Below, one piece after another: positions 9,251 to 50,772 of a stretch of 54,040 nt of DNA. Origin of the DNA: a virus (taxonomy: Duplodnaviria > Caudoviricetes). Numbering within the stretch: the stretch's first letter is position 1; each line of letters begins with the position of its first letter. The stretch lies in IMG/VR virus record IMGVR_UViG_3300023223_000319, positions 1 through 54,040 of that record, one strand, 5' to 3'. A program made the position numbers and the translations under genes. The notes under the pieces are model-generated. The model was not told where the DNA came from. It did not search any database and was given only the letters and a program-made list of their open reading frames with translations.

Positions 9251-9275
9251 CACGTTTAATGCTACAATCAGCACC

Positions 9276-9360
9276 GGCTAGGGCATGCAACCCGAAAAGC
9301 GGTAACACCGACCGCCTGCCAATCCTAATTCGGTGATTATCTTGGTGAGATAGTGGTGAT
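9276..9360 (+). promoter_or_regulatory. Structured leader upstream of the portal gene
   Basis: Extended -10-like TGCTACAAT (9260-9268); GCGGT-AACACCG-ACCGC hairpin whose loop complements three downstream YGGTG sites. Confidence 0.5.
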
Positions 9361-9374
9361 TATGATTATTTAAT

Positions 9375-11762
9375 ATGCCGATAGATAGAGATTATTCTGA
9401 TGTTAATGCAGTCCTTATCCTTATTGAAGAGGCCCAGGATAGTGAGCGCAACCGTCGAGACAAGGTAAAGGAGGCTAAATGCTTCCTGACTAAACGTGAT
9501 GGGATGTGGCACCAGGACTCATGGGATAAGATGGCCGGGCATTATAGGGGTACATTCGACATGTGTACACCTATCGTTGATGGCATAGCAGGCGAGATAG
9601 ATCAATCAGACTTCACGCTGAGAGTCAGCCCTAGCGGCGGCAGAGCCAGCGAAGATACCGCTAGAACCCTGGACGGCCTAATCCGCAACATTCGCAACAT
9701 CTCTAATGCTGAAGACACCTTCAATAAGGCCGGACGATCAAACGTTGTGGGTGGATTTGACGCATGGGAAGTAGTCCAAGACTGGATTGATGGCGATTCA
9801 TTCGACCAAGATCTATTCATCCGTAGAATACCTGACGCTGCAAAGTCCGTATGGTTTGACATGGCCTCTGTCATGCAGGCTCCTGAAGATGCTAATTGGG
9901 CGATTAAGCTTGTTGGCATGCCAATAGCTGACTACCAGGCAAAATGGCCTGATGGCAGTCTCGTCTCTATAGGCGATAACTCAAGAGTTCCCCGGGATAA
10001 AAATAACCCAAAAGAAATAGTAACCGTTGGGCAGCTGTATTTTAAAAAACCTATCGAAATTGACCTCGTAAGAATGAATAACGGAGACGTTTATCAGGAT
10101 GATGATAAATTCAAGGCAGCTCAAGACGAATTGGCCGAGCAGGGAATTACCATTGAGGTCGATGACGAGGGGGAAGAAAAGCGCAGAACTCGCAAAAGCT
10201 GGCGCGTTCATTCTCGCATGCTTGACGGGTCAATGTGGCTAGCCGAAGAAGAAGAGACGGTCTTTGACTTCATTCCAATCGTCCCGATCTACGGTAATTA
10301 CGACTTTATTGACGATGAGCGTGTTTATTTTGGCAAGATTGAGAACCTGCTAGACCCTCAGAGGGCATATAATTATGCCGTGAGCCGAGATATCGAAGAT
10401 GGAGCTCTATCTCCTGCCGCAACAACGTGGATGACTGATAAGCAGGCAGAGGGTAATGATTATTCAAAAATGAACTTCGATCGTGCGCCGATTCGGATTT
10501 ATAACAACGACACAGCCGCAAAATCACCCCCATTCAAGACGCAAGGACCACAGGCCAGTGCTGGGCTACAGACCACAATGGCCAATATGCAGCAGATGAT
10601 TACAGTATCATCTAATACGTTCAACGCTCAACAAGGTAACGCTAGCTCGACACAGAGTGGCGTGGCAGGACTGCAACAGATTGAGCAGGGTAACATTGGA
10701 TCAATCAAGTGGTTTAAAGATCTTGAAATTGCTATTTGTTATACCGGCAAAGTATTGATTAGTGGCGCTATATCAAGAGTTTATGACGGCACTCGACTAG
10801 CGAGAATATTGGGAGAGGACGGCACCTCTAAGATGGTCGATTTGAACAAGCAGGTCTTCGATGATGAAGCTCAGGCAAACGTCACATTGAATGACCTGTC
10901 TATCGGCGAATACGATGTAGTCTGCGAAGTAGGTCCAGCATTTAACAGTGCACAGAAAGAGGCTGCCCGGGCATTTGAGGCAATCGCATCAGTAAGCCCT
11001 GACGTAGCCGCACGAAACATGGATATCTGGCTGAAGAACAAGAAAGAGCCAGGAATGGACATGATGGCTGAGAGGGAGCGAGAAGCCCTGTTTAACGCAG
11101 GACAGATACCGCAAAGCCAATGGACTGATGAAGAACAGCAAAAGGTAGCAGAGGCGCAAGCACAAGCCGCACAACAACCTCCACAGGAAGATCCTATATT
11201 GATTGCTGCAAGGGGCGCAGAAGCCGAGGGGCAGGCCGCCATATTAACAGCCCAAAACAAACAGGCAGAAATACAAGGTAATCAGCAATTGTCTGTGATG
11301 GAGTTACAACTTAAAGACAAACAGCTCGACCTAGACACGCAGAAGTTCATCCGCGCAGGCCAGGACAAGTTTAATGTTGAAGCTGCCAAGATCGGTCAGG
11401 GCGCTACAAAGCTAGATCAATCGCAGCAGTCAATCGACCAGAAAGACCAGCAGATGCTAATCGACGCCCAACAGAATCAAGACAAAATCGATCTACAGGC
11501 CAGAGAGCAGGTTATGGCCGAACAGCAGCAACAGCTCGATAGCGCCTTAAAGATACAACAGGAGCAGCGAGAGGAGCTAACAGCTGCTATTAGCGATCTC
11601 AAGACATTACGAGAAGCCATGGGGGTCGCAACGATTGTAGGGCCTCACAGCACGGAAGCGTATGTTAGCCAGGCTGTAGCAGTCACTGAGATACAAGAGG
11701 AGTCCGGGATTGATACCGAGATAGGCGAGACAGTGGCAGGGACTGCGGGTGATGAGATCTAA
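9375..11762 (+). CDS. P22-like portal protein
   Basis: 795 aa after TerL; FIPIVPIYG, DPQRAYNY, GEYDVVCEVGPAF motifs; long Gln-rich C-terminal coiled coil. Confidence 0.9.
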   Translation: MPIDRDYSDVNAVLILIEEAQDSERNRRDKVKEAKCFLTKRDGMWHQDSWDKMAGHYRGTFDMCTPIVDGIAGEIDQSDFTLRVSPSGGRASEDTARTLDGLIRNIRNISNAEDTFNKAGRSNVVGGFDAWEVVQDWIDGDSFDQDLFIRRIPDAAKSVWFDMASVMQAPEDANWAIKLVGMPIADYQAKWPDGSLVSIGDNSRVPRDKNNPKEIVTVGQLYFKKPIEIDLVRMNNGDVYQDDDKFKAAQDELAEQGITIEVDDEGEEKRRTRKSWRVHSRMLDGSMWLAEEEETVFDFIPIVPIYGNYDFIDDERVYFGKIENLLDPQRAYNYAVSRDIEDGALSPAATTWMTDKQAEGNDYSKMNFDRAPIRIYNNDTAAKSPPFKTQGPQASAGLQTTMANMQQMITVSSNTFNAQQGNASSTQSGVAGLQQIEQGNIGSIKWFKDLEIAICYTGKVLISGAISRVYDGTRLARILGEDGTSKMVDLNKQVFDDEAQANVTLNDLSIGEYDVVCEVGPAFNSAQKEAARAFEAIASVSPDVAARNMDIWLKNKKEPGMDMMAEREREALFNAGQIPQSQWTDEEQQKVAEAQAQAAQQPPQEDPILIAARGAEAEGQAAILTAQNKQAEIQGNQQLSVMELQLKDKQLDLDTQKFIRAGQDKFNVEAAKIGQGATKLDQSQQSIDQKDQQMLIDAQQNQDKIDLQAREQVMAEQQQQLDSALKIQQEQREELTAAISDLKTLREAMGVATIVGPHSTEAYVSQAVAVTEIQEESGIDTEIGETVAGTAGDEI

Positions 11763-12049
11763 TCACAAGACTTTATGCCGTCTTCCGAGTGTCCATGAGT
11801 CCAATACATTTCATTCAGCGGATATTCCCCATCTTGGCTTTCATGCGTTAACGAGTAAAGCGGCGTACCATCACAATCTCTCGTATGCTTAGCAGTGAAA
11901 AGTCTTGCGCCATTCTCCAGCTCAACAAGCACGCCAAGCCCAAGGCTGTGAGGTGTGGCATTATTTACTTGCCGGTATGACCGGCCTTTCGGGTCATCAG
12001 GGTCTTTAAGGTCGGATATAGAGGAAAAAGTTTTCATTTGGAATACCAT
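11759..12049 (-). CDS. Phage hypothetical protein (TRDCDGTPLY motif)
   Basis: Last gene of a leftward run, convergent with the portal gene. Confidence 0.6.
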   Translation of the reverse strand: MVFQMKTFSSISDLKDPDDPKGRSYRQVNNATPHSLGLGVLVELENGARLFTAKHTRDCDGTPLYSLTHESQDGEYPLNEMYWTHGHSEDGIKSCD

Positions 12050-12246
12050 GGTCTTGGGTTACACGCTGAATGGAACTTAAATGCCTTTACTTTAAATTCC
12101 GCAGTAAGATTGGAGTCGCGCATAATGCCATCAAGACACATGCCGCGAGTTGTTCTGGCGGTTTTTGTTTGAGCCTCATTTTGCCACACCAGCTTTATCC
12201 GTTCTTTAATCCTATCCGGCTCTGTGAATGGGCGCTTACGTCTCAT
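12034..12246 (-). CDS. Hypothetical protein
   Basis: GGAGG RBS, ATGA overlap. Confidence 0.5.
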   Translation of the reverse strand: MRRKRPFTEPDRIKERIKLVWQNEAQTKTARTTRGMCLDGIMRDSNLTAEFKVKAFKFHSACNPRPWYSK

Positions 12247-12524
12247 TGTTTATCCTCCTTCATCACATCAAGCTCTTTAGTCCATATCATTACGCCGTTT
12301 CTATCAATTAAATCAGCCCTGGTCGGCTCCATAGCTGTAAAATCCAGCAAGTAGTCACTCTTCCCATCCTTATCAAGCTTAATCGACGGGTAGTTCGTGA
12401 TACCTGTTCTGGTAGAAAAGAAGTGCATTTCGCCGTAACTTAACGGATTACCGTTCTGGTCTAAATACCGAAGCTCTTTGGGGCGATCAACGTTCAAGAG
12501 CTTTCTAAGGATTGTTATGATCAT
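12243..12524 (-). CDS. Hypothetical protein
   Basis: GGAGG upstream; coupled to the next gene. Confidence 0.5.
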   Translation of the reverse strand: MIITILRKLLNVDRPKELRYLDQNGNPLSYGEMHFFSTRTGITNYPSIKLDKDGKSDYLLDFTAMEPTRADLIDRNGVMIWTKELDVMKEDKQ

Positions 12525-12538
12525 TCATGTCCCTCCTG

Positions 12539-12826
12539 TTAGTCGCGTTCTGCGCAATATCTAAGTTGATCATGATTGCTACTAATTCGCTCAAAGTCAG
12601 CGTCTCTTGCTTCTTCGCTGCTGTAAGACCATTCAGCATCACACCCATCAAAAACAATACTGGGCCTTCCGGTATTGTCTGGATACCACGCAAACTTTCC
12701 CTTTCTTATGTTTTTGCACAGAGCAAGGTTCGCGGGGTTATTTTGCACAGTTTTGCCACCCCTATAGATAAAGTTCTCTAATGAGCATTTGACAAAGTAA
12801 GGCGTAGTACCATCCGGCATACTCAC
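12539..12826 (-). CDS. Hypothetical protein
   Basis: Overlaps the stop of the RHH gene. Confidence 0.5.
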   Translation of the reverse strand: MSMPDGTTPYFVKCSLENFIYRGGKTVQNNPANLALCKNIRKGKFAWYPDNTGRPSIVFDGCDAEWSYSSEEARDADFERISSNHDQLRYCAERD

Positions 12827-12978
12827 TTAATCCCCAGGTCTTTCTTGATCAGCCTATTCAGATACTCGGACATACTTATGCCGTCAGCCTCGCATTTCTT
12901 GGTTATTTCCAGACTAATCGTACTGGTAACTTTTGCGGCAATCGCAATATTTCTTAATTCTCGTCTTGGCTTTGGCAT
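12823..12978 (-). CDS. Ribbon-helix-helix DNA-binding protein
   Basis: MPKPRRELRNIAIAAKV...CEADGISMSEYLNRLI fits the Arc/CopG pattern; divergent from the ter operon. Confidence 0.6.
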   Translation of the reverse strand: MPKPRRELRNIAIAAKVTSTISLEITKKCEADGISMSEYLNRLIKKDLGIK

Positions 12979-13075
12979 TATCGCTTGACCTTTAGTTATC
13001 TTTGGTTTACTTTTGTACCCAGTGTTAGAGAATAGCACTTTTAACTACAAATACTCAATCAAAAAGGTAAATATC

Positions 13076-13645
13076 ATGGATCTGCAAATTATTGAAAAAG
13101 GCGCAACATTTGAACTGGACGTAGTATCAAAGCAGGAAGGCCCCAAAACTTACTACTTCGGTGCTGGCTGGGATAATCCCAATGGCCCTGTTGATCTTGA
13201 TATTGTTTGTGCTCTTTTGAAAGACGGCAAACTGGCCGGTAATGGTGACTTTGTTTATTTCGGCAATCGTAATGCCGCTGGTGTTGCTTTGTCTGAAGAT
13301 AACCAGACCGGCGAAGGTGAAGGCGATGACGAAAGCATTGTTATTAATACAGACGAAATCGATCCTGCCGTTGATAGCATTGTTATTGGCCTGGCTGCTT
13401 ATGCTGGTGCCGATCTTCATTCGGCGCCAAACCCTCACTTCCGCGTTTGTGATGGCTCAGAAGAGTCTAGCGAGCAAATCGGCGATGTTGTGGTTACTGG
13501 TGGCGCTATTGCCGGCGACACTGTCCTGGTCGCGTTTACGTTGAATCGTGGTGCTAATGGATGGAGCCTGGAGAATAATGCAGCGTTCCATGCCAAAGGC
13601 CAAGGTACTGGTGCTATTCAAGGTTTCGGCGCTTTGTTCTCGTAA
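13076..13645 (+). CDS. terD: TerD-family protein
   Basis: GAGWD, VDLDIVC, DFVYFGN, DNQTGEGEGDDESI; AAGG RBS before ATG 13076. Confidence 0.92.
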   Translation: MDLQIIEKGATFELDVVSKQEGPKTYYFGAGWDNPNGPVDLDIVCALLKDGKLAGNGDFVYFGNRNAAGVALSEDNQTGEGEGDDESIVINTDEIDPAVDSIVIGLAAYAGADLHSAPNPHFRVCDGSEESSEQIGDVVVTGGAIAGDTVLVAFTLNRGANGWSLENNAAFHAKGQGTGAIQGFGALFS

Positions 13646-13667
13646 TAGCACATTAAATCATACGCTC

Positions 13668-13692
13668 GCGGCCTTCGGGCCGCCTTATTTTT
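13668..13692 (+). terminator. Hairpin/terminator between terD and terB
   Basis: GCGGCC-TTCG-GGCCGC followed by a T-rich tail. Confidence 0.6.
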
Positions 13693-13704
13693 AGAGGGTT
13701 TATC

Positions 13705-14142
13705 ATGTTAAATACTTTTACAAAATTTCTCGAAGGTATTGCAGAAGAGGGTGAAAAGCTATTTTCCAGAGTCAAGGATAAAGCATTATTTCGCAAGGTT
13801 GTTTCTGCCAGCTTTCTTATTGCTCGTGCCGATGGCGATTTTGATTCTGATGAAAAAACAGCGCTGGCGACGATCGTTTCTAAAAAGCTTTCTCACTTTA
13901 GCATCGGTGATATTTTAAAAGTCCTGAATGATTGTGAGGAAAAAGTTGCCTTTGATGAAACTATGGGCGTTATGGAAATAATGGACGATATCTGCACGGC
14001 ATCAGGTAGCGATGCTGAAATGATACTTCGAATCTCTTGCTTTATTGGCGCCTCAGACGGCGATTTTGACGCCGATGAGAAAAAGGTTGCCTCGGATATG
14101 GCTAAGCGCATGAGCCTTGATCCTTCGGGTTATGGGCTGTGA
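13705..14142 (+). CDS. terB: TerB-family protein
   Basis: Two repeats, ARADGDFDSDEK and ASDGDFDADEK; ends LDPSGYGL. Confidence 0.9.
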   Translation: MLNTFTKFLEGIAEEGEKLFSRVKDKALFRKVVSASFLIARADGDFDSDEKTALATIVSKKLSHFSIGDILKVLNDCEEKVAFDETMGVMEIMDDICTASGSDAEMILRISCFIGASDGDFDADEKKVASDMAKRMSLDPSGYGL

Positions 14143-15047
14143 TAGGCTATCCACTGGTTACGGTCTCCGTCTTTATCGGCATAGCGGTTATGTTATTTGC
14201 CGCTGACCTTTTTGCGCATAAGAAGAAGGAGGCGGTATCTTTTAAATCATCCGTCATGTGGTCATTGATATATATAGCAGGTGCCATGTGTTTTGCGGCA
14301 TTTCTTTACTTCTATCATGGTCAGCAGGCGGCAAGCCTGTTTTTAACGGGGTATACGCTAGAGAAAGTCCTGGCATTTGATAATCTTTTTGTCTTCTCTC
14401 TGATATTTGCTTATTTTAAAATACCTGCACCTGATAGGCATGCAGCACTTCACTGGGGGATTATCGGGGCTATAGTATTTAGACTGGTATTCGTTGTCAT
14501 TGGCGTTGAATCAATGAGCCTATTTGGCCCTGTAATGGAGTTTATATTTGCTTGCTTAATAGCATTCACTATTTACCTAATAGTAAAGTCTGGCGATGAT
14601 GAGGCTGATTATGACAATGTGTGGTATGTAAAATATATCAGAAGGCATTTCCCTTCAGTAACGCCCTTTATCATTGCTATATGCGCTATTGAGATAAGTG
14701 ACATCATGTTTGCTTTTGATAGCGTGCCTGCGGTGATCGCCGTCACTAAAGACCCTTTGTTGATCTATAGCTCAATGATATTCGCAATACTTGGCTTAAG
14801 GTCTTTGTATTTCGTTATAGACTCGCTGTCGTCGTGCTTGAGATATATGGATGCATCGATCATATGCGTGCTGTCTTTTATCTCCATTAAACTTGCTGCC
14901 CATTCGATAACTGGATTTCATATTGAAGCAAATCACAGTTTGATTGTCGTTATTTCAATATTATCAGTTGGTATAATTTTATCTTTATTTAAAGGATCTG
15001 ATCATGAAAAAGAACCCAATACTGAAGCATCTTCGAAAGCCTCTTAA
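14139..15047 (+). CDS. terC: TerC/Alx-family membrane protein
   Basis: GYTLEKVLAFDNLFVF, WGIIGAIVFR, IEISDIMFAFDSVPA, FAILGLRSLYF. Confidence 0.95.
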   Translation: MIGYPLVTVSVFIGIAVMLFAADLFAHKKKEAVSFKSSVMWSLIYIAGAMCFAAFLYFYHGQQAASLFLTGYTLEKVLAFDNLFVFSLIFAYFKIPAPDRHAALHWGIIGAIVFRLVFVVIGVESMSLFGPVMEFIFACLIAFTIYLIVKSGDDEADYDNVWYVKYIRRHFPSVTPFIIAICAIEISDIMFAFDSVPAVIAVTKDPLLIYSSMIFAILGLRSLYFVIDSLSSCLRYMDASIICVLSFISIKLAAHSITGFHIEANHSLIVVISILSVGIILSLFKGSDHEKEPNTEASSKAS

Positions 15048-15234
15048 GTGGGCTGCCCTGGCTATATTCTGCATCATCGCTCTATCTCGAGGCGTCAGCT
15101 ATATTGCTGGCGCTTACTCATGTAGCTCGGAATGGAAAGAGAGCGGCATGGATTACAAATACAAATTAAGTGCCGGCTGCATGATAAGCCCTAACGGCAA
15201 CTGGATTCCTGCGCGAAATTACAGGATTGATTGA
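15004..15234 (+). CDS. Small membrane-anchored protein
   Basis: One hydrophobic segment, two Cys, ends WIP.RNYR. Confidence 0.6.
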   Translation: MKKNPILKHLRKPLKWAALAIFCIIALSRGVSYIAGAYSCSSEWKESGMDYKYKLSAGCMISPNGNWIPARNYRID

Positions 15235-15336
15235 GGCTTTTGGGTCTGTTTTGGCGAAATATCTAGGGATGGATAAGTTCCTGCTTATTGATAGTCCGTC
15301 TGCCAATGCGTTTTTATAATAGAAAGGAATATAAGT

Positions 15337-15669
15337 ATGGAAAAACAATGTAGTCACGGCGTCGAATGGGACGTGCACTGCGCTGAGTGTGAGATGGTCA
15401 GCCTGGATGAGACGATATTTCATGCAGGCAAAGCCCTTGCTTTAGCTAAGGCAACGAAGATTGAGGTGCAGGCGTTAATCAACGCTCAGCGTGAGGCTCT
15501 TAGTGACGCTAGTTGGCCTGATCATTTAAAGCGAGATGCACCTTATGCTCAATGCGATCAATGCCGGCGTAAGTCATGGACTTCCAAACAATTCGGCAGT
15601 ATTTGCGGAATGGTTGATCTAGACAGGAATAGAACTTGCCCTGGCCGCTTAATAAAAACAGTTCAATAA
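15337..15669 (+). CDS. Cys-rich putative Zn-binding protein
   Basis: CSHG...CAEC and CDQC...C...C motifs; AGGA RBS. Confidence 0.55.
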   Translation: MEKQCSHGVEWDVHCAECEMVSLDETIFHAGKALALAKATKIEVQALINAQREALSDASWPDHLKRDAPYAQCDQCRRKSWTSKQFGSICGMVDLDRNRTCPGRLIKTVQ

Positions 15670-15692
15670 TGCACGACTACTGGAGTTAGAAG

Positions 15693-16922
15693 ATGAGCAA
15701 GTATAAATATATATTTGACGATACGGCATCCAGCCCAATCAAGCATTGGACTAAAGGCGTGGAGCTAGACGATAAAGCAAGAGACCAGCTATACAATATT
15801 GCCTCGATGCCATTCATCCACAAGCATGTTGCAGTGATGCCTGATGTTCACTGGGGCAACGGGGCTACCATAGGATCAGTTATAGCCACCAAGGGAGCCA
15901 TTATACCGGCTGCGGTAGGCGTTGATATTGGCTGCGGAATGATGGCGCTTAAAACGTCACTAAAGGCCACTGACCTGCCTGATAACCTTCACGCTATACG
16001 CAGCGCCATAGAGGCAGAAATCCCCCATGGGCGCACTGATAACGGCGGTAAGAATGACAAAGGCGGATGGGGTGATGTAATGCCATCGGATAACGCCGAT
16101 TCATGGCTAAGGCTTTCTGTTGGTTATGAAGCTATATTGGCAAAGCACCCTAAAGCGAAGTCATTCAATAACGCATCTCACCTAGGAACGCTCGGAACTG
16201 GCAACCACTTCATTGAATTATGCCTTGATGAAAATGACGATGTTTGGGTAATGCTGCATTCTGGTTCTCGTGGAGCCGGCAACCGTATTGGCATGTATTT
16301 CATTGAGAAAGCGAAAAAGGAGATGGAGCGATATTATATTGATAAGTATCTGCCGGATCGTGAGCTTGCCTATTTAGTTGAGCATTCGGAGATTTTCGAT
16401 GATTACGTTTCTGCGGTTGCGTGGGCCCAGGATTACGCGCTTGAAAACAGAAAGCTTATGATGGCTCAAGTTTTAGGTGCGATGAAGCGACACTTAAAGC
16501 CATTCACAATTGAAGATGAGGCGATTAACTGCCATCACAACTACATAGATAGAGAGAATCATTTCGGCTCTAATGTGTGGGTGACTCGCAAAGGTGCTGT
16601 TCGCGCCAGAGAGAAAGATTTAGGGATTATTCCAGGCTCCATGGGCACCGGGTCATTCATTGTTCGCGGACTAGGCAACAAAGACTCATTCTGTAGCTGC
16701 TCTCATGGAGCTGGCCGCGTAATGTCTAGAGGTGAGGCAAAGAGAAAGATAACGCTAGAGCAGCACGAAAAAGCCATGACAGGAATCGAGGCGAGACTTG
16801 ATGCCGGCGTCATTGATGAAAGTCCTGCGGCCTATAAAGACATTGGCGCGGTAATGGATGCTCAGAGTGACTTAGTTGAAATTGTTTATCGTCTTCGTCA
16901 AGTGATAAATGTTAAAGGCTAG
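15693..16922 (+). CDS. rtcB: RNA-splicing/repair ligase RtcB
   Basis: MPDVH.G.G, GVDIGCGM, GTLGTGNHFIE, HSGSRG, HNY, PGSMG, SHGAGR, DESPAAYKDI, VKG end. Confidence 0.97.
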   Translation: MSKYKYIFDDTASSPIKHWTKGVELDDKARDQLYNIASMPFIHKHVAVMPDVHWGNGATIGSVIATKGAIIPAAVGVDIGCGMMALKTSLKATDLPDNLHAIRSAIEAEIPHGRTDNGGKNDKGGWGDVMPSDNADSWLRLSVGYEAILAKHPKAKSFNNASHLGTLGTGNHFIELCLDENDDVWVMLHSGSRGAGNRIGMYFIEKAKKEMERYYIDKYLPDRELAYLVEHSEIFDDYVSAVAWAQDYALENRKLMMAQVLGAMKRHLKPFTIEDEAINCHHNYIDRENHFGSNVWVTRKGAVRAREKDLGIIPGSMGTGSFIVRGLGNKDSFCSCSHGAGRVMSRGEAKRKITLEQHEKAMTGIEARLDAGVIDESPAAYKDIGAVMDAQSDLVEIVYRLRQVINVKG

Positions 16923-16968
16923 GCCACTAGCGCGCATTACAGAATGTTAACTTGATGATATCTGGCTG

Positions 16969-17086
16969 TGCTATAATATCAGCTTGGCTTTGGTCGGCCT
17001 AATTCGTAAGTTAACAAAGCTCAGGCTTTTATCCTTTATCGCACTTACGCGAAACGACCAAAGGGATAGAAGTCTGAGCTTTTTTA
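16969..17086 (+). promoter_or_regulatory. Promoter plus attenuator-like leader of the NAD operon
   Basis: TGCTATAAT extended -10; long stem 17016-17037/17060-17082 followed by a T-run; the 5' TTTGGTCG and TTCGTAAGT complement the hairpin loop. Confidence 0.7.
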
Positions 17087-17098
17087 TTGGAGAACAAT

Positions 17099-17926
17099 AT
17101 GATTTCAATAAGGATTTGTGGAGATAATTATTACCCATCCGTTATGGTTTTCTCTGGCGGTGAGGTCAATGTAACACTCCCCACTATATTGCCTTACTCT
17201 ATTGACTCATACACATTGAAGGCAAAAATAAAGAGTTCCGAAGATTTAATGACTCTCTTTATGGTGAAGAATGCTCTCAATGTTAAATATGGATCAAATG
17301 TTACATCTCAGCTAATAATCCCATATCTGCCTTATGCCAGACAGGACAGGGTATGTAATCCTGGTGAGGCGCTATCAATCAAGGTTATGGCTGACCTTAT
17401 TAATAGCATGGCCTTCTCAAGGGTGATTACCTACGACAACCATAGTGACGTATCCACGGCGCTTATCGACAACTGCAACAACAAACTGCCAAGTCAGCTA
17501 ATTGCTCAATGTGGTGAAATTAATAACCTTCTTACAAAGACAAGGGTATCTCTGTGCTGTCCTGATGCCGGAGCAGCCAAGAAGGTCTATGGAGTGTCTA
17601 AGGCCTATGGAGGGGTGCCGGTTGTTATGGCTGAAAAGATTCGTGATGTAAAGACAGGTGAAATTACCCATACCGAGGTTTATGCCGATGATCTTGGCGG
17701 ACAAAGCATTCTTGTAATTGATGATATCTGCGATGGAGGAATGACATTTATTAAGTTGGCTGAAAAACTTATAGCAAAAAATGCAGGCCCACTATTTTTA
17801 TATGTTACTCATGGAATTTTTAGCAAGGGACTAGATGCTCTTTCCATGTATCAAAAGATATATACCACTGATAGTTTTTCAGCAGTAGAAGACGGAAACG
17901 ATAAACTTTACATAATCAAGCCATAG
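17099..17926 (+). CDS. Ribose-phosphate pyrophosphokinase-like protein (likely NARP1 Adps)
   Basis: FSGGE, PYLPYARQDR, PDAGA, VIDDICDGGMTF, VTHGIFSKG; immediately upstream of the NAMPT homologue. Confidence 0.9.
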   Translation: MISIRICGDNYYPSVMVFSGGEVNVTLPTILPYSIDSYTLKAKIKSSEDLMTLFMVKNALNVKYGSNVTSQLIIPYLPYARQDRVCNPGEALSIKVMADLINSMAFSRVITYDNHSDVSTALIDNCNNKLPSQLIAQCGEINNLLTKTRVSLCCPDAGAAKKVYGVSKAYGGVPVVMAEKIRDVKTGEITHTEVYADDLGGQSILVIDDICDGGMTFIKLAEKLIAKNAGPLFLYVTHGIFSKGLDALSMYQKIYTTDSFSAVEDGNDKLYIIKP

Positions 17927-17935
17927 GATAACACC

Positions 17936-19498
17936 ATGAAAATCAACCCTTTAACTCAAATTGACTTCTACAAAGCCGATCACAGGCGTCAATATCCAGA
18001 CGGAACTACGCTGGTGTACTCTAATTTCACCCCTCGCAGCGATAAGCTTGCGCCTATCCTAGAAGAATTTTGGGATGGCAAGATTACATTCTACGGGCTT
18101 CAGGGTTTTTGTAAGTGGTTCCTGATTGATCTATGGAATGCTGAATTCTTCAATAAGCCAAAAGATATTGTGGTGAAGAAATATAAGCGCAGAATGGATA
18201 CTTCTTTAGGCGTTGACGCTATCGATATTGCCCACATTGAAGCTCTGCATGACCTGGGATATCTACCTGTCAAGATCAAGGCACTCCCCGAAGGCTCTCA
18301 AGTTGGCATGAAAGTCCCGGTATTTACCATTGAAAACACGCTACCTGAATTCTTCTGGCTGACTAACTACCTTGAGTCGGTAATGAGCACGGAGATATGG
18401 AAGCCGTGCACTACTGCAACCATTGCATTTCAGTATAAAAAGCTGCTTACGAGCTATGCAGTGGCAACAGGGGCTCCTTTAGACTTCGTACCTATCCAGT
18501 GTCACGACTTCAGCTTACGCGGCCTCAGCGGACTGCATGACGCCCACTCTAGCGCATCCGGCCACTTGCTTAGCTTTGTTGGTACGGACTCAATTCCAGC
18601 CATCGACTATTTAGAAGAGTATTACAATGCAGACTGCGAGAAAGAGCTTGTGGGTTGTAGCGTACCGGCGACAGAGCATTCAGTGATGTGTATGGGCGGC
18701 CAGGATGATGAGATAGGAACTTTCCGGCGCCTTATTACTGAAACCTATCCTGCTGGAGTGGTCTCTATAGTGTCTGATACTTGGGATTTCTGGAAGGTTG
18801 TCACTGAGTACACCGTGGCCCTGAAAGATGAAATCATGAGTCGGAAGCCCAATGTCATCGGATTAAATAAGGTGGTCTTGCGTCCAGATAGCGGCGATCC
18901 TATACGGATTATTTGCGGTTATACCGAAGATGAGATAATCAGAGATCCTCATGGCTGCATCCAAGTCAAGGCGAGCTCTGGCGCTAAAAACCTTACTGAG
19001 CATGAAGTAAGGGGCGCAGTACAGTGCTTATGGGATATATTCGGAGGTACTGAAACTTCACTGGGTTATAATTTACTCGATGAGCATATTGGCCTGATTT
19101 ACGGCGATTCAATTACCTTGCGGCGGGCCAAAGAAATCCTCCAGCGGTTGAAAGATAAGGGCTTTGCGTCCACTAACGTGGTATTTGGTGTGGGTTCCTA
19201 TACATATCAATACAATACCCGGGACACATTCGGCTTTGCCATGAAGGCAACTTATGGCGAAGTTAATGGAGAGGGGCGAGAGATATTCAAAGACCCGGCC
19301 ACTGATGACGGCATTAAGAAGTCTGCTAAAGGCCTTCTAGCTGTTGTTGATGGTTCTGACGGGTATCAGCTGGTAGGCCAATTAACCCGGGAGACTCAAG
19401 AGCTTCTCTGCGTGATGGATGTTGTGTTTGCCGATGGAGGGATGATCAGGGATCAATCTTTGTCTGGAATCCGTGAGTTAATCGATAACTCTTTGTAA
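17936..19498 (+). CDS. Nicotinamide phosphoribosyltransferase-like protein (likely NARP1 Namat)
   Basis: DFYKADH, HDFSLRG, SVPATEHSVM, SIVSDTWD, RPDSGDP, IYGDSIT, RDTFGFAMKAT, KKSAKG. Confidence 0.95.
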   Translation: MKINPLTQIDFYKADHRRQYPDGTTLVYSNFTPRSDKLAPILEEFWDGKITFYGLQGFCKWFLIDLWNAEFFNKPKDIVVKKYKRRMDTSLGVDAIDIAHIEALHDLGYLPVKIKALPEGSQVGMKVPVFTIENTLPEFFWLTNYLESVMSTEIWKPCTTATIAFQYKKLLTSYAVATGAPLDFVPIQCHDFSLRGLSGLHDAHSSASGHLLSFVGTDSIPAIDYLEEYYNADCEKELVGCSVPATEHSVMCMGGQDDEIGTFRRLITETYPAGVVSIVSDTWDFWKVVTEYTVALKDEIMSRKPNVIGLNKVVLRPDSGDPIRIICGYTEDEIIRDPHGCIQVKASSGAKNLTEHEVRGAVQCLWDIFGGTETSLGYNLLDEHIGLIYGDSITLRRAKEILQRLKDKGFASTNVVFGVGSYTYQYNTRDTFGFAMKATYGEVNGEGREIFKDPATDDGIKKSAKGLLAVVDGSDGYQLVGQLTRETQELLCVMDVVFADGGMIRDQSLSGIRELIDNSL

Positions 19499-19507
19499 TT
19501 AATAACT

Positions 19508-19542
19508 GCTCCTAGCAGGGTCGAGTCCTGCTAGGAGTACCA
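19508..19542 (+). ncRNA. 35-nt tRNA minihelix-like element
   Basis: GCTCCTA GCAGG GTCGAGT CCTGC TAGGAGT A CCA: 7-bp acceptor stem plus 5-bp T-stem, 7-nt loop, discriminator and CCA. Confidence 0.6.
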
Positions 19543-19556
19543 ATTTAAGGGTTAAT

Positions 19557-20030
19557 ATGAGCATCAAGGAAATAACCATGAAGACTAATGGAGTGAGAGG
19601 TTTCTGCGGAATCGGGCTAGATAATCCAAAGAGCAATATTAATGTTGGCGCGGCTTTAAGAGCTGCCGGAGTCTATGGCGCTTCATTTGTCGCTGCAAGT
19701 GGTGGGCGATGGACAAGCGACAAAACTGACACCATGAAAAGTTACAGGCACTTACCTTTACTACGTCCTGAGAATCTAAGGGACTTACTGCCGTATGACT
19801 GTGTTCCCGTTGCTGTTGATTTAATCGAGGGGGCAATTGCACTGCCGGAATACAAACATCCAGAAAGAGCCTTTTATATATTTGGCGCAGAGGATGCGAC
19901 GTTGGGCGAAAGAATCACTGGGTGGTGTCGAGATACTATCTACATACCAACTAACGGGTGTATGAATTTAGCGGCCACTGTAAATGTCGTGCTTTATGAC
20001 AGGCTGGCTAAAAGCTTAATTAAGGATTGA
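19557..20030 (+). CDS. SpoU/TrmH-family (SPOUT) RNA 2'-O-methyltransferase
   Basis: NPKSNINVGAALRAA, YIFGAEDATL, IPTNGCMNLAATVNVVLYD. Confidence 0.92.
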   Translation: MSIKEITMKTNGVRGFCGIGLDNPKSNINVGAALRAAGVYGASFVAASGGRWTSDKTDTMKSYRHLPLLRPENLRDLLPYDCVPVAVDLIEGAIALPEYKHPERAFYIFGAEDATLGERITGWCRDTIYIPTNGCMNLAATVNVVLYDRLAKSLIKD

Positions 20031-20031
20031 T

Positions 20032-20292
20032 ATGTCTATTGACGAAAACAGCTACAACCAAGGATCTCGCATGGCATGGCGACGAATGCTTCAGCAATGT
20101 TGCCGTGAGCTAGGATATGATGATATTGAAACAGATAAGGCCAGATGGATATTAGAGCGAGAGGCGGCTATTAGTGCGCTGCGTAGCGTCTGCTCAGGTC
20201 ATGGCGATAATGACTGGGAAGATAATTTGTACATGGGAGATATTATAGAGAAGCATTTGCTCAATAACCTTGAGTCTGCTTCTGGCGGCTAG
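20032..20292 (+). CDS. Hypothetical protein
   Basis: Packed after the methyltransferase; GDNDW...DIIEKHL. Confidence 0.6.
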   Translation: MSIDENSYNQGSRMAWRRMLQQCCRELGYDDIETDKARWILEREAAISALRSVCSGHGDNDWEDNLYMGDIIEKHLLNNLESASGG

Positions 20293-20294
20293 AT

Positions 20295-21248
20295 TTACCC
20301 TCTGTATACAGAGATAAGCCAGTCATCCCAAAAGCCTGTATCAACCTTATCTGGATAAGGCGACTTATCAGCCAAGCCCTCAACCTCGGCTATGAGGCTT
20401 TCTAGCAACGGCTGCACGAATGATAGAAAATCATAATCTCCAATCTTAATGCCTCGGATTACGTCCCTATCCTTCAGTGGATATTCAATGCAGCCATTCA
20501 AGTATATCTCCTTAAGCTGATAAGCAGCCCTGATAGCGTGAGAGACAGCCTTCCAGTCAATACCCTCATTATCCTTTGCTTGCCGCGCACGCTCACCGTA
20601 TGAGCTCCATTTTACATCCATGGAGGCGATAAACTGATGTAGCGGCATGGAATTCTGATACTTGGAGCCTAGAACCTCATAAAACTCCTGCTCTTCGCCT
20701 GATTTCAGCTTGTCGTTAATGAATCTGCAATGATCATTAACAGGCAATTTATCCCAGATAGATAATAGCTTTCTTGGCTCCGAGAGAATATGCTGCCTTG
20801 ATACATTCCATACCTCTTCAAGCGCGCCCATTCTACTGCCTTTTAGGCCATACTTGGCGGCCTGCTTCTTGGCATACCCAAGGAAGGCTTTCATATTTTT
20901 AGTGTAGAATCGGTCTTTGTTAGCCACGATAAAAGCCCATTCAGGCGAGCCACAAAGAACCATTTCCCTATTAGTGTGGGCATGCAGCATATCCAGAGCT
21001 ATAGTTTCACCCTGGCAAGCCAGCTTGATAAACTCAGGCAATGAATACCAATCGCTATCAATATCATCGGATGAGTTCTTGGTTTCGTTATTGCCGGATG
21101 ATTCGCTGACCTGCCTAGGAGACTTACCTAATAACAGCTCATCCAGCTCAGGCATGAAGACGCCTTTGTAGTCCGTGTCTGACTGAGGCGTATCAAGCCC
21201 ATACAGATGCGAGCCGTGAATGCACTGGAATAGCTTTTTGTATTTCAT
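20295..21248 (-). CDS. Pol-beta-superfamily nucleotidyltransferase (RlaP / T4 NrdC.11-like)
   Basis: GSHLYGLDTPQSDTDYKGVF, GYAKKQAAKYG.KGSR, DWKAVSHAIR. Confidence 0.88.
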   Translation of the reverse strand: MKYKKLFQCIHGSHLYGLDTPQSDTDYKGVFMPELDELLLGKSPRQVSESSGNNETKNSSDDIDSDWYSLPEFIKLACQGETIALDMLHAHTNREMVLCGSPEWAFIVANKDRFYTKNMKAFLGYAKKQAAKYGLKGSRMGALEEVWNVSRQHILSEPRKLLSIWDKLPVNDHCRFINDKLKSGEEQEFYEVLGSKYQNSMPLHQFIASMDVKWSSYGERARQAKDNEGIDWKAVSHAIRAAYQLKEIYLNGCIEYPLKDRDVIRGIKIGDYDFLSFVQPLLESLIAEVEGLADKSPYPDKVDTGFWDDWLISVYRG

Positions 21249-21793
21249 TTTGGCCCCAAGTAATAATCAATGATAATTCTGCTCAGCGTATTCCATAGCT
21301 CTTTGTCTCCGTCCTTGAGAAGGCCGAGTAATAACTGCATTTCTTTCATGTATACTTTCGCAAAGCCTGGATCATGCTGAGTTATGGACTCCGAGTTATG
21401 AATCAAGTCGGCAAGTTTTACTGTCTTGGCGCGATCAGAAATCCCTGATAGGTGTTCTCGGTCCATAGCCTTGCGAATAGCACGATTCCCATCTTCAGGC
21501 TTTGATACATCAGACGGCTCTACAACCATATTAGCGACCGTACACCCAAAGCCTGCTCTCATAATGTCTTGATGTGTTATCGTAGTATCCTCAATAACGT
21601 CGTGCAGTATCGCGGAAGTCACCATATCTACGTCATAGTAATCACAAGTCATAACAATCTTGGCAACGGCTATAGGGTGGTTGATATAGGGCTCTCCGGT
21701 GTATTTCCTTACTTGGTCGCCATGGGCTTCATTGCCGAATTTCACAGCAAAATCGATTAAATCCTGGCTTCTTTCGTAGATTATTCCGTGCAT
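21245..21793 (-). CDS. Stand-alone HD hydrolase (SpoT-hydrolase/Mesh1-like)
   Basis: AH.DQVRKYTGEPYINHP, AILHDVIEDT, VKLADLIHN. Confidence 0.9.
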   Translation of the reverse strand: MHGIIYERSQDLIDFAVKFGNEAHGDQVRKYTGEPYINHPIAVAKIVMTCDYYDVDMVTSAILHDVIEDTTITHQDIMRAGFGCTVANMVVEPSDVSKPEDGNRAIRKAMDREHLSGISDRAKTVKLADLIHNSESITQHDPGFAKVYMKEMQLLLGLLKDGDKELWNTLSRIIIDYYLGPK

Positions 21794-21804
21794 ACATTCC
21801 TCAC

Positions 21805-22011
21805 TTAATGCGCCTTATCCCCAGCCCTAACCATATCAAGCAAAGGCTTAAGCACTCCAAAATCATTGATATCTGCTTCGATATCTTCCTGATGAGCCAT
21901 GGCAAACATTAACCCAGCCTGCATTGATTCTATGGCGTCTGAGTACAGGACAAAGGCGCCTTCATCGTCTTCTTGAATATCAAATACGGTCTTTGTTTTA
22001 TAGCGTTTCAT
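21805..22011 (-). CDS. Hypothetical protein
   Basis: AGGA RBS; in the leftward run. Confidence 0.55.
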   Translation of the reverse strand: MKRYKTKTVFDIQEDDEGAFVLYSDAIESMQAGLMFAMAHQEDIEADINDFGVLKPLLDMVRAGDKAH

Positions 22012-22050
22012 ATCATTTCCTATATTGTAAAATGGTATTTGTGCAGGCGT

Positions 22051-22491
22051 TTAATTCTCTTCTTTCCGTTTCTTAATCAGTGCCCAGTGTTTAAGATCGC
22101 CCGTCTCTAAAGGGTTTAGCCCCTCCCATGCCTTTGATGGGTGCGGGTCGTGAATTACCAGTCCGGAGCTATTAATTAAAACTGCGTGTGTCACTCCGTC
22201 TTCAGGAGGGTAGTTTTTACTGGACACCGTAGCCTCTATACACCCATTAACCGTTGGTGATCTAGCAAGTCTTTCTCTGGTTTCTTCGATAGTTTTTTTA
22301 GGATGCCCCGTTCCAAGCATTTCATAGCCAATTGCGTAAACAAAGCCACAAAGAACTGGCCACCACGTATGTTCATCAAACAGCCTGAAATGAGGGACTT
22401 GTGACACATCTAGGTCAAACAGGCTGGCTATTGCTGTTTGGTGGCAGTTGCCACGGGTTCTATCTGTGATCGTTTGCGTGTGCCTAATCAT
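22051..22491 (-). CDS. Putative papain-fold (C39-like) protein
   Basis: Q...GNCHQTAIASL (Cys), THAV (His), HDP (Asp). Confidence 0.55.
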   Translation of the reverse strand: MIRHTQTITDRTRGNCHQTAIASLFDLDVSQVPHFRLFDEHTWWPVLCGFVYAIGYEMLGTGHPKKTIEETRERLARSPTVNGCIEATVSSKNYPPEDGVTHAVLINSSGLVIHDPHPSKAWEGLNPLETGDLKHWALIKKRKEEN

Positions 22492-22694
22492 TCCTCACTC
22501 TCTTTATCCGGCAGCCCAGCAATCATTTTGTTCAATTTGTCGTGAGATTTGGCATTAGCCGTCATTCGCTCATATGTTGCGCGACATATCCCCCAGTACT
22601 CTATGAAATCCTTAACAAGCCAGCCTTTGCCATGAAGTATCAAAGTAAATCTATTCAAGTAGGTATCTCCCCATAGTTTGCTGGAACATAGCAT
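22488..22694 (-). CDS. Small hypothetical protein, possible HTH
   Basis: First gene of the leftward unit; KGWLVKDFIEYWGICRATYER. Confidence 0.45.
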   Translation of the reverse strand: MLCSSKLWGDTYLNRFTLILHGKGWLVKDFIEYWGICRATYERMTANAKSHDKLNKMIAGLPDKESEE

Positions 22695-22808
22695 AAAACT
22701 GTTGGTATTTCAAATATTTAGGGGGGGCTCTATAATTGATGCAGGCCGACAGCAAGCCTATTGCTGGCACGGTGAGAGATCACCTATACCTATTTTAAGG
22801 GCGTTAAC

Positions 22809-23648
22809 ATGAGTGATGAAGGGCTACAAACCGGTGAATTGTCGCAAGAAAATCAAGCGGCTAGTGCCGAAAACCAACCTGCTGAGCAACTAAGTCAACA
22901 GGCTGGAGCGGAGTTAGCAACCGATACTGAAGGGCAGCAGGAAAAAACAGCCCAAGTTGATGAGGCAGCAGCGAAAGCAGCAGCGGCCACTCAGAAGGTT
23001 ATCAACGAAAAGCATTTTCAGACCAAGCAGGCAGAGCGAGAGCGCGACGACGCCCTGGCACAGATTGCAACGTTTGAACAGGAAAAACGAGACGCTGAAG
23101 CCGCGAGAGCCGGCGATATCCCTCCCATTCCTGAAGAGTTCGATGATAATTTTAAAGAGAAAATGGTGGAGCGAGATGCGGCTATAGCACGACAAGCCAC
23201 GTTTCAAGCTAGCCAGGCCAATTACAACCAGCAGCTGGAGAATCAGCAAGCATTAGCGCAACAGCAGGCTCAGGCGGAACGGCAGCAGAAAGTTGTTAGC
23301 TATAACGCCAAGGCAGTAGAGTTTGGTATTAATGAGGCAGAATTGCGAGCGGCAGAAAATGCAGTAATGAGTTACGGACTTTCCGATGACACATCCGCCC
23401 ACATTATGGCGGATTCAGACGGCCCGTTAATTGTTAAGCACTTGGCTGCAAACCCGGCAGACACGATGACGCTAGTGAATATGTCGCCGTTTCAACAGGG
23501 TGCATTTTTGGATCACATTAAGGCCAAAGCTAGTGCGCTTAAACCAAAACAAACGCAAACCCCCAATCCTCCGGAGATTTTGACCGGTGGTGGCGCTCAA
23601 GTTGATGTTGATAAATATCCAAATAGCGCAGGGGCAACTTTTTCATAA
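22809..23648 (+). CDS. Scaffolding protein
   Basis: Acidic Q/A/E coiled coil directly before the coat gene; GPLIVKHLAANP and PNPPE tail. Confidence 0.8.
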   Translation: MSDEGLQTGELSQENQAASAENQPAEQLSQQAGAELATDTEGQQEKTAQVDEAAAKAAAATQKVINEKHFQTKQAERERDDALAQIATFEQEKRDAEAARAGDIPPIPEEFDDNFKEKMVERDAAIARQATFQASQANYNQQLENQQALAQQQAQAERQQKVVSYNAKAVEFGINEAELRAAENAVMSYGLSDDTSAHIMADSDGPLIVKHLAANPADTMTLVNMSPFQQGAFLDHIKAKASALKPKQTQTPNPPEILTGGGAQVDVDKYPNSAGATFS

Positions 23649-23665
23649 TTTAAGGAGCCACACTC

Positions 23666-24949: not shown

Positions 24950-24984
24950 TAAGTAGTTGATTTAAAATATTTTCTAAGTCATGC

Positions 24985-25011
24985 AAGGGCCAGAGTCTTG
25001 GCCCTCTTCTT
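24985..25011 (+). terminator. Hairpin after the capsid gene
   Basis: AGGGCCA...TGGCCCT followed by CTTCTT. Confidence 0.5.
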
Positions 25012-25029
25012 CAAGCAAGAGAGATCATT

Positions 25030-25260
25030 ATGGATTTATTAACTGAATGGGTGAAGCCAAACGGCGTTCGTGTCTTTTTGAACGACGAAGAGCTAACGAT
25101 AGAGGAAGCAGTTAAAAACAAATGGAGTCGATTCAGCGATACCGCAGAAGGCATTGCAGAAGCCGAAGAGATTCTTGTAGCTAGAGAGCTAAGGGCAGAA
25201 GCCACGGTAGAGGCCGCAAAGGCAGCTGAGAAAGAAAACAAAACAAAGAAGTCCGCATAA
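25030..25260 (+). CDS. Small protein downstream of the coat gene
   Basis: Typical position in P22-like head clusters. Confidence 0.65.
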   Translation: MDLLTEWVKPNGVRVFLNDEELTIEEAVKNKWSRFSDTAEGIAEAEEILVARELRAEATVEAAKAAEKENKTKKSA

Positions 25261-50767: not shown

Positions 50768-50772
50768 CTTTT

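Follow-up and report, generated by a model that had tools for sequence, protein, structure and literature searches.

The 54,040-b stretch of DNA described here (IMG/VR virus record IMGVR_UViG_3300023223_000319) is referred to below, at its full length, as the window. It is a whole IMG/VR virus of the linear class with a CheckV completeness of 100%, and its morphogenetic genes are of the P22 type. Between its portal and scaffold genes lies an island of 10,936 b (11759-22694), which is 20.2% of the window and agrees with the estimate of about a fifth made in a first-pass annotation of this DNA. When 21 island open reading frames (ORFs) were scanned, with Pfam families called at curated cut-offs, the genes named in that annotation were found in their places, the papain fold being recognized by structure. 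The island holds TerD-TerB-TerC, RtcB, a PRS-like and NAMPT-like pair (Adps and Namat), a SPOUT methyltransferase, RlaP, a SpoT-type HD protein, a C39/papain-fold protein, a weak candidate for a ribbon-helix-helix (RHH) protein, and about nine small ORFs (Table 1).

By the ORF map the island consists of three blocks. Five leftward ORFs (11759-13038) are followed by a rightward block (13076-20292) in the order terD, terB, terC, an ORF of 76 amino acids (aa), a 110-aa ORF, rtcB, the PRS-like gene, the NAMPT-like gene, the SPOUT gene, and an 86-aa ORF. Five more leftward ORFs (20295-22694) make up the right arm, which from the scaffold side consists of a 68-aa ORF, the 146-aa papain-fold protein, a second 68-aa ORF, HD, and RlaP. 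We propose that the portal-scaffold junction is probably a hypervariable hotspot for accessory genes in a lineage of P22-like marine podoviruses, and that its cargo in the window is likely a mosaic of modules gained and lost separately and not one inherited unit.

Variation at the portal-scaffold junction

The junction could be compared in five relatives. The series of insert sizes was drawn from relatives that show both anchors, and the portal-bearing fragments L006, L007, L008, and L092, which end before the junction or show nothing recognizable there, were left out. It had been stated that portal and scaffold genes are normally neighbours in such phages, and this is borne out by gaps of about 110 nt in L005 and L091, which are the same virus, and of 114 nt in Vibrio phage 234P9. 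In Pseudoalteromonas phage H6/1 the gap is 849 nt and holds four small leftward ORFs, and in L004 it is about 1.3 kb and holds six, of which the one nearest the scaffold gene is 41% identical to the window ORF at the same position (22488-22694). The insert grows to 8.2 kb in G001 as against 11.0 kb in the window.

G001 (L193) is a complete phage of 50,740 b with terminal repeats, and its portal and head protein are 53% and 86% identical to those of the window. It has a three-block layout like that of the window, with a Cro/C1 helix-turn-helix (HTH) gene at the head of each leftward arm. Its rightward block carries terD (76% identical), terB (52%), terC (60%), the small membrane ORF (42%), two small ORFs, the SPOUT gene (65%), and three further ORFs. 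What the window has beyond G001 is the 110-aa ORF and rtcB-adps-namat, placed after the ter genes and before SPOUT, and its right arm is a different one. RtcB, Adps, Namat, RlaP, and HD were found nowhere in the complete G001 genome. Directly after the G001 portal gene lies an HNH_3+AP2 homing-endonuclease-like gene (L193 2433-2912, minus strand), which could be a driver of exchange at the junction.

The window portal is 53-62% identical to the portals of L004, L005, L091, and G001. Among isolated phages the nearest by portal are H6/1 (37.5% identity, 36.7 kb) and Vibrio phages of about 38 kb, and the P22-like phages of Salmonella and E. coli come next at about 26% identity. A megablast of 9000-25000 against 50,697 phage records gave zero matches, and a portal scan of 185,579 species' genomes (one per prokaryote species) gave no relative and hence no prophage copy. 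Domains of integrases, resolvases, and HTH_3 repressors were looked for in the window with Pfam and not found. Since neither these genes nor a prophage relative was found, nothing points to lysogeny, and the island genes are most likely active in lytic growth. The virus had been called a small podovirus, but 54 kb is not small for its group: the window (54.0 kb) and G001 (50.7 kb) exceed H6/1 (36.7 kb) and Vibrio phage 234P9 (37.9 kb), with a head-gene set common to all.

All island proteins were searched against 214 loci, fetched with 6-10 kb of flank per side around the closest relatives of RtcB, Namat, SPOUT, and RlaP. The full island set recurs in none of these loci, each of which is centred on one island gene, and only sub-pairs recur. 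Around Namat (best 80 of 484 relatives) the PRS-like gene is present within 10 kb in 77 of 80 loci and directly upstream, within 400 nt, in 44; HD occurs in five, RtcB in one, and Ter, RlaP, and SPOUT in none. Around RtcB (best 80 of 244 IMG/VR relatives) the NAMPT-like gene occurs in seven loci, HD in three, and the PRS-like gene, TerD, and a C39-like gene in one each. The 44 SPOUT loci share context in G001 only and have RtcB in two, while among the ten RlaP loci HD is adjacent in one (L229) and NARP1 genes lie within 6 kb in two. In G002, a complete phage of 70,425 b, TerD, RtcB, Adps, Namat, HD, and a C39-like gene are dispersed over 5-66 kb. The Ralstonia jumbo phage RP12 (L009, 7733-14205) has the order rtcB-PRS-NAMPT-376-aa unknown-RNA ligase, of which the first three are in window order. 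These genes thus tend to gather loosely in many phages, and the set in the window, whose full content recurs in 0 of 214 loci, is a one-off combination. That such genes belong mostly to larger phages stands for the PRS-like, RlaP, and TerC matches in isolated phages, which among the matches listed are in genomes of 73-357 kb, but it does not stand as a rule, because the complete 50.7-kb G001, the 70.4-kb G002, and the 73-kb phage BUCT194 carry parts of the set.

Only one public run (X1) held words of 10800-14000, with a share of 0.06, and it was stored as contigs. One X1 contig (24,998 nt, for the most part 85-90% alike) matches two parts of the window, 8476-11165 with terminase and portal and 12823-15232 with the RHH candidate, terDBC, and the 76-aa ORF, colinear and on one strand. 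Between these parts there are only short matches (11703-11756 and 12032-12255), and the spacing is 2,443 nt as against 1,658 nt in the window. A second contig, of 15,640 nt, runs from 23088-25750 back to about 21807-21980, with about 800 nt (21980-22781) skipped or replaced. The X1 contigs are mostly less than 90% alike, with unread sequence at several skips. They lend independent support to the portal-to-ter and right-arm-to-scaffold joins, and their differences from the window indicate that the arms vary even among close relatives. At 85% likeness, X1 covers 17015-21221 at a mean depth of 0-0.17, from which no inference was drawn.

Table 1. Genes and other features of the portal-scaffold island and its flanks in the window
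Feature	Position	Strand	Evidence or remark
Large terminase	7571-9250		PHROGs
Portal, left anchor of hotspot	9375-11762	+	phrog_156, E 5.3e-91
Three small ORFs (96, 70, 93 aa)	11759-12524	-	no Pfam or PHROG match
95-aa member of a conserved small phage protein family	12539-12826	-	
Candidate RHH regulator	12823-13038	-	heads left arm, divergent from terD
terD	13013/13076-13645	+	Pfam TerD, E 2.5e-19
terB	13705-14142	+	Pfam TerB, E 2.4e-12
terC/Alx	14139-15047	+	Pfam TerC, E 1.5e-37
76-aa ORF, membrane-protein look	15004-15234	+	hydrophobic stretch read by eye
110-aa Cys-rich orphan ORF	15337-15669	+	
rtcB	15693-16922	+	Pfam RtcB, E 9.7e-129, model positions 1-426 of 426
adps (PRS-like)	17087-17926	+	Pribosyltran_N above cut-off; Pribosyltran and Pribosyl_synth below
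namat (NAMPT-like)	17936-19498	+	Pfam NAPRTase and NAMPT_N
SPOUT (SpoU/TrmH-class) methyltransferase	19557-20030	+	SpoU_methylase, E 2.1e-12, 47.8 bits (cut-off 29.7); probable start 19578
86-aa ORF directly 3' of SPOUT gene	ends at 20292	+	no matches
RlaP nucleotidyltransferase	20295-21248	-	Pfam, E 9.1e-12, 45.6 bits (cut-off 23); residues 6-137 only
SpoT-type HD hydrolase	21245-21793	-	HD_4, E 4e-16, 59.6 bits (cut-off 27.2)
68-aa ORF	21805-22011	-	
C39/papain-fold protein, 146 aa	22051-22491	-	structure model
68-aa ORF	22488-22694	-	adjoins scaffold gene
Divergent intergenic region	22695-22808		
Scaffold gene, right anchor	22809-23648	+	phrog_8865, E 6.8e-22
Major head protein	23666-24949		PHROGs

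Predicted functions of the island genes

Gene identities, motifs, synteny, and variability are observed directly, and the activities given below, with their timing and their benefit to the phage, are put forward by homology.

By the sequence tests available the PRS/NAMPT pair is very probably NARP1, as it had been read in the first-pass annotation. The two genes are on the same strand with a spacer of 9 nt. Namat matches PDB 9W5X/9W5W, which is SpbetaL1 Namat per the depositors' paper, with 578 bits (E 1.7e-172) as against 217 bits for human/mouse NAMPT; it matches a second PDB entry of unstated origin, 9KE8, with 442 bits and is 48% identical to the ICP1 partner. The Namat signature GSX-Phi1-X-Phi2-X-Phi3-TRD lies in the selectivity-clamp helix, where its aromatic X residues are described as stacking on the adenine of ADP-ribose pyrophosphate (PMC12774641), and GSYTYQYNTRD at residues 420-430 of the window protein is an exact fit. 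Adps aligns over 211 aa, at 45% identity (E 2e-55), with its PRS-like counterpart in Vibrio phage ICP1, an enzyme whose structure was solved and which was assayed as Adps in a 2026 paper; the window protein matches the E. coli PRPP synthetase with 68 bits only. Of the ICP1 Adps residues it keeps Lys185 (K184), Asp212, Asp213, Ile214, Cys215, Asp216, Arg87 (R85), His121 (H119), Asp161 (the D of CPDAG), and Phe221, and it has DDICDG as its PP loop; ICP1 Phe18 did not align. Adps enzymes are described as lacking the C-terminal alpha11-alpha12 module of canonical PRPS; the window Adps is 279 aa long as against 316 aa for the E. coli enzyme, and the two align as far as residue 247 of the query and 256 of the chain. 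No match to an Nmnat-type domain (PF01467) was found in the window, and therefore the pair is not NARP2. Once NADase defences have fired, Adps and Namat would very probably make NAD+ anew, with ADP-ribose and nicotinamide as starting material. According to the Osterman preprint, NARP1 is present in 4.3% of sequenced phages and protects against Thoeris, DSR1, DSR2, SIR2-HerA, and SEFIR, and its deletion makes phages sensitive specifically to NAD+-depleting defences.

RtcB, aligned to T. thermophilus RtcB, keeps the metal-binding and His-GMP motifs DxHWG, DIxCG, GNHF, HSGSRG, HN, and HGAGR, which fits the earlier reading of it as an RNA ligase. Its scores do not reach the equivalog cut-offs that NCBIfam sets for the E. 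coli and PrfH-linked types. The protein would likely reseal RNAs, chiefly tRNAs, in which anticodon nucleases or similar RNases of defence systems have left 2',3'-cyclic-phosphate and 5'-OH ends. The scan of 21 island ORFs gave no Pnkp, RtcA, archease, or ATP-grasp ligase.

RlaP shares 45-47% identity with NrdC.11-type genes from T4-like phages, a type that occurs in 1533 phage records. Members of this family, to which the first-pass annotation had rightly assigned the gene, are reported in the RlaP preprint to add 1-2 nucleotides to RNA 3'-OH ends in vitro, with damaged RNA preferred, and are proposed there to restore the nucleotide removed by RloC-type nucleases. The gene has no operon link to an RNA ligase gene, rtcB being 3.4 kb off on the opposite strand. 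It overlaps hd by 4 nt, and the same junction is found in L229 (5456-6603), where HD is 68% and RlaP 82% identical. The HD protein (182 aa), which had been listed as an HD hydrolase, is by sequence a stand-alone hydrolase domain of the SpoT/Rel type: it matches positions 1-123 only of TIGR00691, the HD motif is at 64-65 and the ED motif at 68-69, and there is no synthetase domain. In PDB it comes closest to Lmo0812, which is small alarmone hydrolase-like (1.3e-14), with SpoT/Rel and MESH1 as further neighbours. Small alarmone hydrolases are described as neutralizing toxSAS toxins that either synthesize (pp)pApp or add pyrophosphate to the CCA ends of tRNAs (PMC7229694, 10.1101/2021.04.30.441581, PMC11782079). 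In L057 (10001-11676) rtcB overlaps at its 3' end with an HD gene of the SpoT type, and the link between HD_4 and RNA-end enzymes is thus recurrent but rare. Because of these overlaps, with rlaP in the window and L229 and with rtcB in L057, we infer that HD belongs functionally with RNA-end enzymes. The translationally coupled HD and RlaP could, with some reserve, be taken to act on RNA 3' ends or alarmones. If this is the case, HD would strip 3'-pyrophosphate from (p)ppGpp, (p)ppApp, or pyrophosphorylated tRNA, and RlaP would re-add the one or two nucleotides lost.

The SPOUT protein has 6153 metagenomic homologues, the best 119 of which, its own protein excluded, are 72-94% identical, and it has matches in 4 of the 50,697 isolated-phage records. 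It matched no NCBIfam model and, as a single sequence, no PDB entry. Its profile matches TrmJ (2.1e-5) and putative TrmL (2.6e-3) in PDB, both over partial length, and the JGI label on its relatives is TrmL. The protein would 2'-O-methylate an RNA, and a tRNA target, perhaps in the anticodon loop, is possible. Transesterifying RNases need the 2'-OH, and this is the ground for the hypothesis that 2'-O-methylation by the SPOUT protein would block tRNA cleavage. A limited literature search, which included a 2026 review, found no statement for phages on tRNA protection by SPOUT-type methylation in the texts available. A joint reading can be made in which SPOUT and HD/RlaP are new kinds of pre-emptive phage protection, but we consider it quite unlikely. 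It would have SPOUT 2'-O-methylate the anticodon loops of host or phage tRNAs against transesterifying anticodon nucleases, a 'vaccination' complementing the resealing by RtcB. HD and RlaP would in this joint reading form a unit for healing and rebuilding 3' ends, which removes 3'-pyrophosphate or phosphate and re-adds nucleotides, and so would reverse attack on tRNA 3' ends by toxSAS-type or exonucleolytic effectors.

The most likely start of terD is 13076, which is preceded by a Shine-Dalgarno-like AAAAGG. TerC reaches 267.6 bits with the model of the Alx metal-homeostasis subfamily, TIGR03718 (cut-off 246.4). The order terD-terB-terC-76-aa ORF is the same in G001 and is also present in the X1 contig, mostly 85-90% alike, and the membrane-like 76-aa ORF recurs in G001 and L109. 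Vibrio schitovirus BUCT194, which is lytic and 73 kb in size, has TerD-TerB-TerC-TerB, with a TerC that is 40% identical. TerC is found in 175 isolated-phage records and TerD in 21 of 50,697. A 6-bp all-GC hairpin with a T-run lies between terD and terB (13664-13683, plus strand) and by its position may attenuate the expression of terB and terC; at 13644 the X1 relative lacks 12 nt. That terDBC is kept in the window, in G001, and in the X1 relative shows no more than its usefulness to the lineage, and together with the small membrane ORF it would be a long-standing resident of the slot. On plasmids, ter operons inhibit phages and make cells resistant to colicins, and TerD is a calcium-binding protein. 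We suggest, quite tentatively, that terDBC and the membrane ORF would alter membrane or divalent-cation handling of the infected cell and so exclude competing phages and bacteriocins; alternatively, and just as tentatively, they would withstand membrane-directed abortive infection. That Ter reverses membrane or ion stress, as the first-pass annotation had it, was a guess, and the only published phage reading found is superinfection exclusion (PMC7824862). Our literature search brought up no other published phage role for Ter, and no functional test in phages, in the texts available.

Leftward arms and features elsewhere in the genome

The 146-aa protein of the right arm had been called a papain-fold protein, and this is upheld by structure. 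No Pfam family matches it, the C39 families included, and a Foldseek PDB search with its AlphaFold2 (AF2) model (predicted local distance difference test score, pLDDT, 94.5) gave nothing at E<=0.001, the top rows being papain-like. With VIA-align the model superimposes on the C39 peptidase domain of PCAT1 with a Z of 10.5 and a root-mean-square deviation of 2.8 A over 121 residues. Across 19 homologues His102, His114, and Asp115 do not vary and Cys16 hardly does. By its model the protein is of papain-like/C39-like fold with a conserved Cys and His.

Each leftward arm would start with a small candidate DNA-binding gene, so that the two arms flank the rightward block. The claim that the island has its own RHH regulator holds for position, since the gene is divergent next to terD, but the family call comes from a sub-threshold NikA-like match (E 0.005, 17.4 bits as against a cut-off of 27) and is otherwise read from the sequence. 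The protein is probably 51 aa long from an ATG at 12978, which leaves a divergent spacer of 97 bp (12979-13075) to the probable terD start, and at the same position G001 has its Cro/C1 HTH gene. At the scaffold end a promoter-like TTCAAA-16-TATAAT is present at 22709-22736 on the plus strand and a minus-strand site at 22713-22685, in a scan that is overall at chance level.

The ORF at 12539-12826 belongs to a real conserved family of phage proteins of about 80 aa, with 118 cluster representatives at E<=1e-3 and 40 at <=1e-10. phrog_11417, whose function is not annotated, matches 5 of 41 family members. The AF2 model (pLDDT 85.1) matches a protein of Bacillus phage Mater with a template modelling (TM) score of 0.79, and the best PDB match, PH-like with a Z of 5.1, is not significant. 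Hen1_N was considered for this 95-aa ORF and rejected, because it scores 18.7 bits as against a cut-off of 27 and the model is a beta-sandwich with a helix whose best PDB Z is only 5.1. The ORFs of 11759-12524 had no tblastn match in 3.8 Mb of fetched phage loci, and this segment is itself variable, since X1 matches only 11703-11756 and 12032-12255. The 110-aa Cys-rich ORF has no family match and one partial homologue only among 5.8 billion proteins, and the 86-aa ORF had no matches in the searches made. In all, seven small ORFs (96, 70, 93, 51-71, 110, 86, and 68 aa) had no relatives detected in the sets searched and are putative genes.

The structural proteins named by PHROGs include a P22-type adaptor (Ad3-type) and head-closure proteins (Hc3-type), and no tail-tube or sheath families turned up among the window proteins scanned. 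A DHH/DHHA1 phosphoesterase is encoded outside the island at 36537-37499 on the minus strand (phrog_4771, E 9.1e-102; Pfam matches just below cut-off). DHH phosphodiesterases are named in a jumbo-phage survey as possible degraders of cyclic-nucleotide immune signals (PMC7824862). Genes for tRNA-Pro(tgg) and tRNA-Leu(tag) lie side by side at 50690-50849 on the plus strand; phage tRNAs may substitute for cleaved host tRNAs, which touches the theme of RNA repair. Recombination and Nin genes of lambdoid type (NinG, HNH endonuclease, NinB/Orf-like, and exonuclease) lie at 40225-44084 on the minus strand, with no lysogeny genes detected.

Alternative explanations and comparison with known systems

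In the first-pass annotation the island was one compact kit that reverses several outputs of abortive infection, and such a kit would be co-inherited, co-regulated, and moved as a unit, with its genes acting jointly. Its genes do lie in one slot with candidate regulators at both ends, and RNA-repair genes are found near NARP1 in unrelated phages too (RP12, L028, L228, and L236). We nevertheless consider a single kit improbable. The set as a whole is absent from the 214 loci, the modules change independently of one another from relative to relative, ter and SPOUT are present in G001 without the rest, and the X1 relative differs from the portal to the RHH gene and around 21980-22781. The region is transcribed in three directions, and neither flanking repeats nor a recombinase was found that would mark a mobile unit, the repeats around the island being only short, chance-like matches with no att-like or transposon-like ends. 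The earlier interpretation is right for NARP1 and plausible for the RNA and alarmone genes, as far as their sequences go, and is not supported for one kit. A different objection is that foreign DNA was joined into a podovirus contig during assembly, for which it can be said that a single public run held any of the stretch, at a share of 0.06, and that the whole island is marginally atypical in tetranucleotides. Such a chimera is highly improbable: the same morphogenetic operon resumes on both sides, ter and SPOUT occupy the same slot in G001, one X1 contig joins portal, variable ORFs, RHH, and terDBC, and another joins about 21807-21980 to scaffold and head genes. No sub-block is atypical in composition, since a share of 0.10-1.0 of null chunks is at least as distant from the genome in tetranucleotides as the island sub-blocks are, and the GC content at third codon positions (GC3) of the island is within the genome range. 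The X1 joins together with the matching composition make a chimera unlikely, while independent contigs speak for the outer joins and the internal ones rest on this assembly.

It could also be that much of the cargo, above all terDBC, serves against competitors or in general take-over of the host and not against host immunity. The roles would then be superinfection exclusion, bacteriocin resistance, Mn2+/Ca2+ handling, and a boost to NAD+ and tRNA supply. The jumbo-phage survey proposes Ter systems for competition with superinfecting phages (PMC7824862), TerC is in the Alx metal-homeostasis subfamily, ter is a conserved resident (G001, X1, BUCT194) as expected of a generally useful function, and none of the PADLOC defence models matched any of the 10 island proteins searched. 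Against this stands the report that NARP1 deletion sensitizes phages specifically to NAD+-depleting defences (Osterman preprint), and we consider this explanation somewhat unlikely. We keep to a mosaic of separately acquired modules rich in counter-defence candidates, and several observations weigh against it or against parts of it. The promoter scan gave 22 sites as against 22.8 expected by chance. RtcB, RlaP, and HD are not in one operon, and the 3'-OH products of RlaP do not suit RtcB, which needs a 3'-phosphate, according to the RlaP preprint. In Adps two adenine-contacting residues of the ICP1 enzyme are replaced, Phe92 by Cys and Phe223 by Lys. The TerD paralogues TerA/Z/E/F, TelA, and the phosphoribosyltransferase (PRTase) and HAD genes of signal synthesis were not among the 21 island ORFs, which include a single TerD-domain gene, and the survey describes fuller Ter systems as including biosynthetic and TelA/TerF parts (PMC7824862). 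As to integrity, only 0.02 of same-sized null chunks reach the tetranucleotide distance of the whole island, and the joins 15234-15693, 16922-17087, 19498-19557, and 20292-20295 are seen in this assembly alone.

A variable slot loaded with counter-defence candidates is of a known kind, and the island is a well-resolved new example of it with two under-studied conserved residents. Its parts are mostly known from other phages, so that the gain lies in context and testable leads and not in a new principle. Inserts of 0, 0.85, 1.3, 8.2, and 11 kb at one junction form a natural test series for which modules matter against which defences. NARP1 and RNA-repair genes are here placed in a mid-sized P22-like podovirus and not in a large myovirus or jumbo phage. 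The two poorly understood items kept by selection in the lineage are the minimal TerD-TerB-TerC set and the SPOUT family with its thousands of environmental relatives.

Like the NARP1 of Bas63, SpbetaL1, Fado, and ICP1, that of the window is a two-gene operon with the PRS-like gene first, the Namat signature, and the catalytic Lys and PP loop of Adps. It differs from them in lying inside the head-gene operon of a P22-like podovirus and in two adenine-stacking residues of Adps, and it is known here from sequence. With the phage RNA-repair sets of RtcB/Rnl ligases and RlaP/NrdC.11 described in the jumbo-phage survey (PMC7824862), the window shares an RtcB and an RlaP-family gene in one genome. 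It differs from them in its genome size of about 54 kb, in having rtcB and rlaP on different strands, and in the coupling of rlaP to HD, a pairing found otherwise in L229 only. HD resembles the reported small alarmone hydrolases as a lone SpoT/Rel hydrolase domain with HD and ED motifs, but its gene is coupled to rlaP and does not adjoin a toxSAS gene. Among phage Ter modules (BUCT194 and the Brevundimonas and Caulobacter jumbo phages), the window has the TerD-TerB-TerC order of BUCT194; it differs in being a minimal three-gene set with a small membrane ORF, located in a structural-gene hotspot and kept in at least three related podoviruses. The island as a whole is like the variable accessory and anti-defence clusters described by Silas et al. 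(preprint 10.1101/2023.04.06.535777) in that conserved anchors surround fast-changing cargo rich in counter-defence candidates. It is set apart from those clusters by having two late-operon genes, portal and scaffold, as its anchors and by a cargo that varies between 0 and 11 kb in a single lineage.

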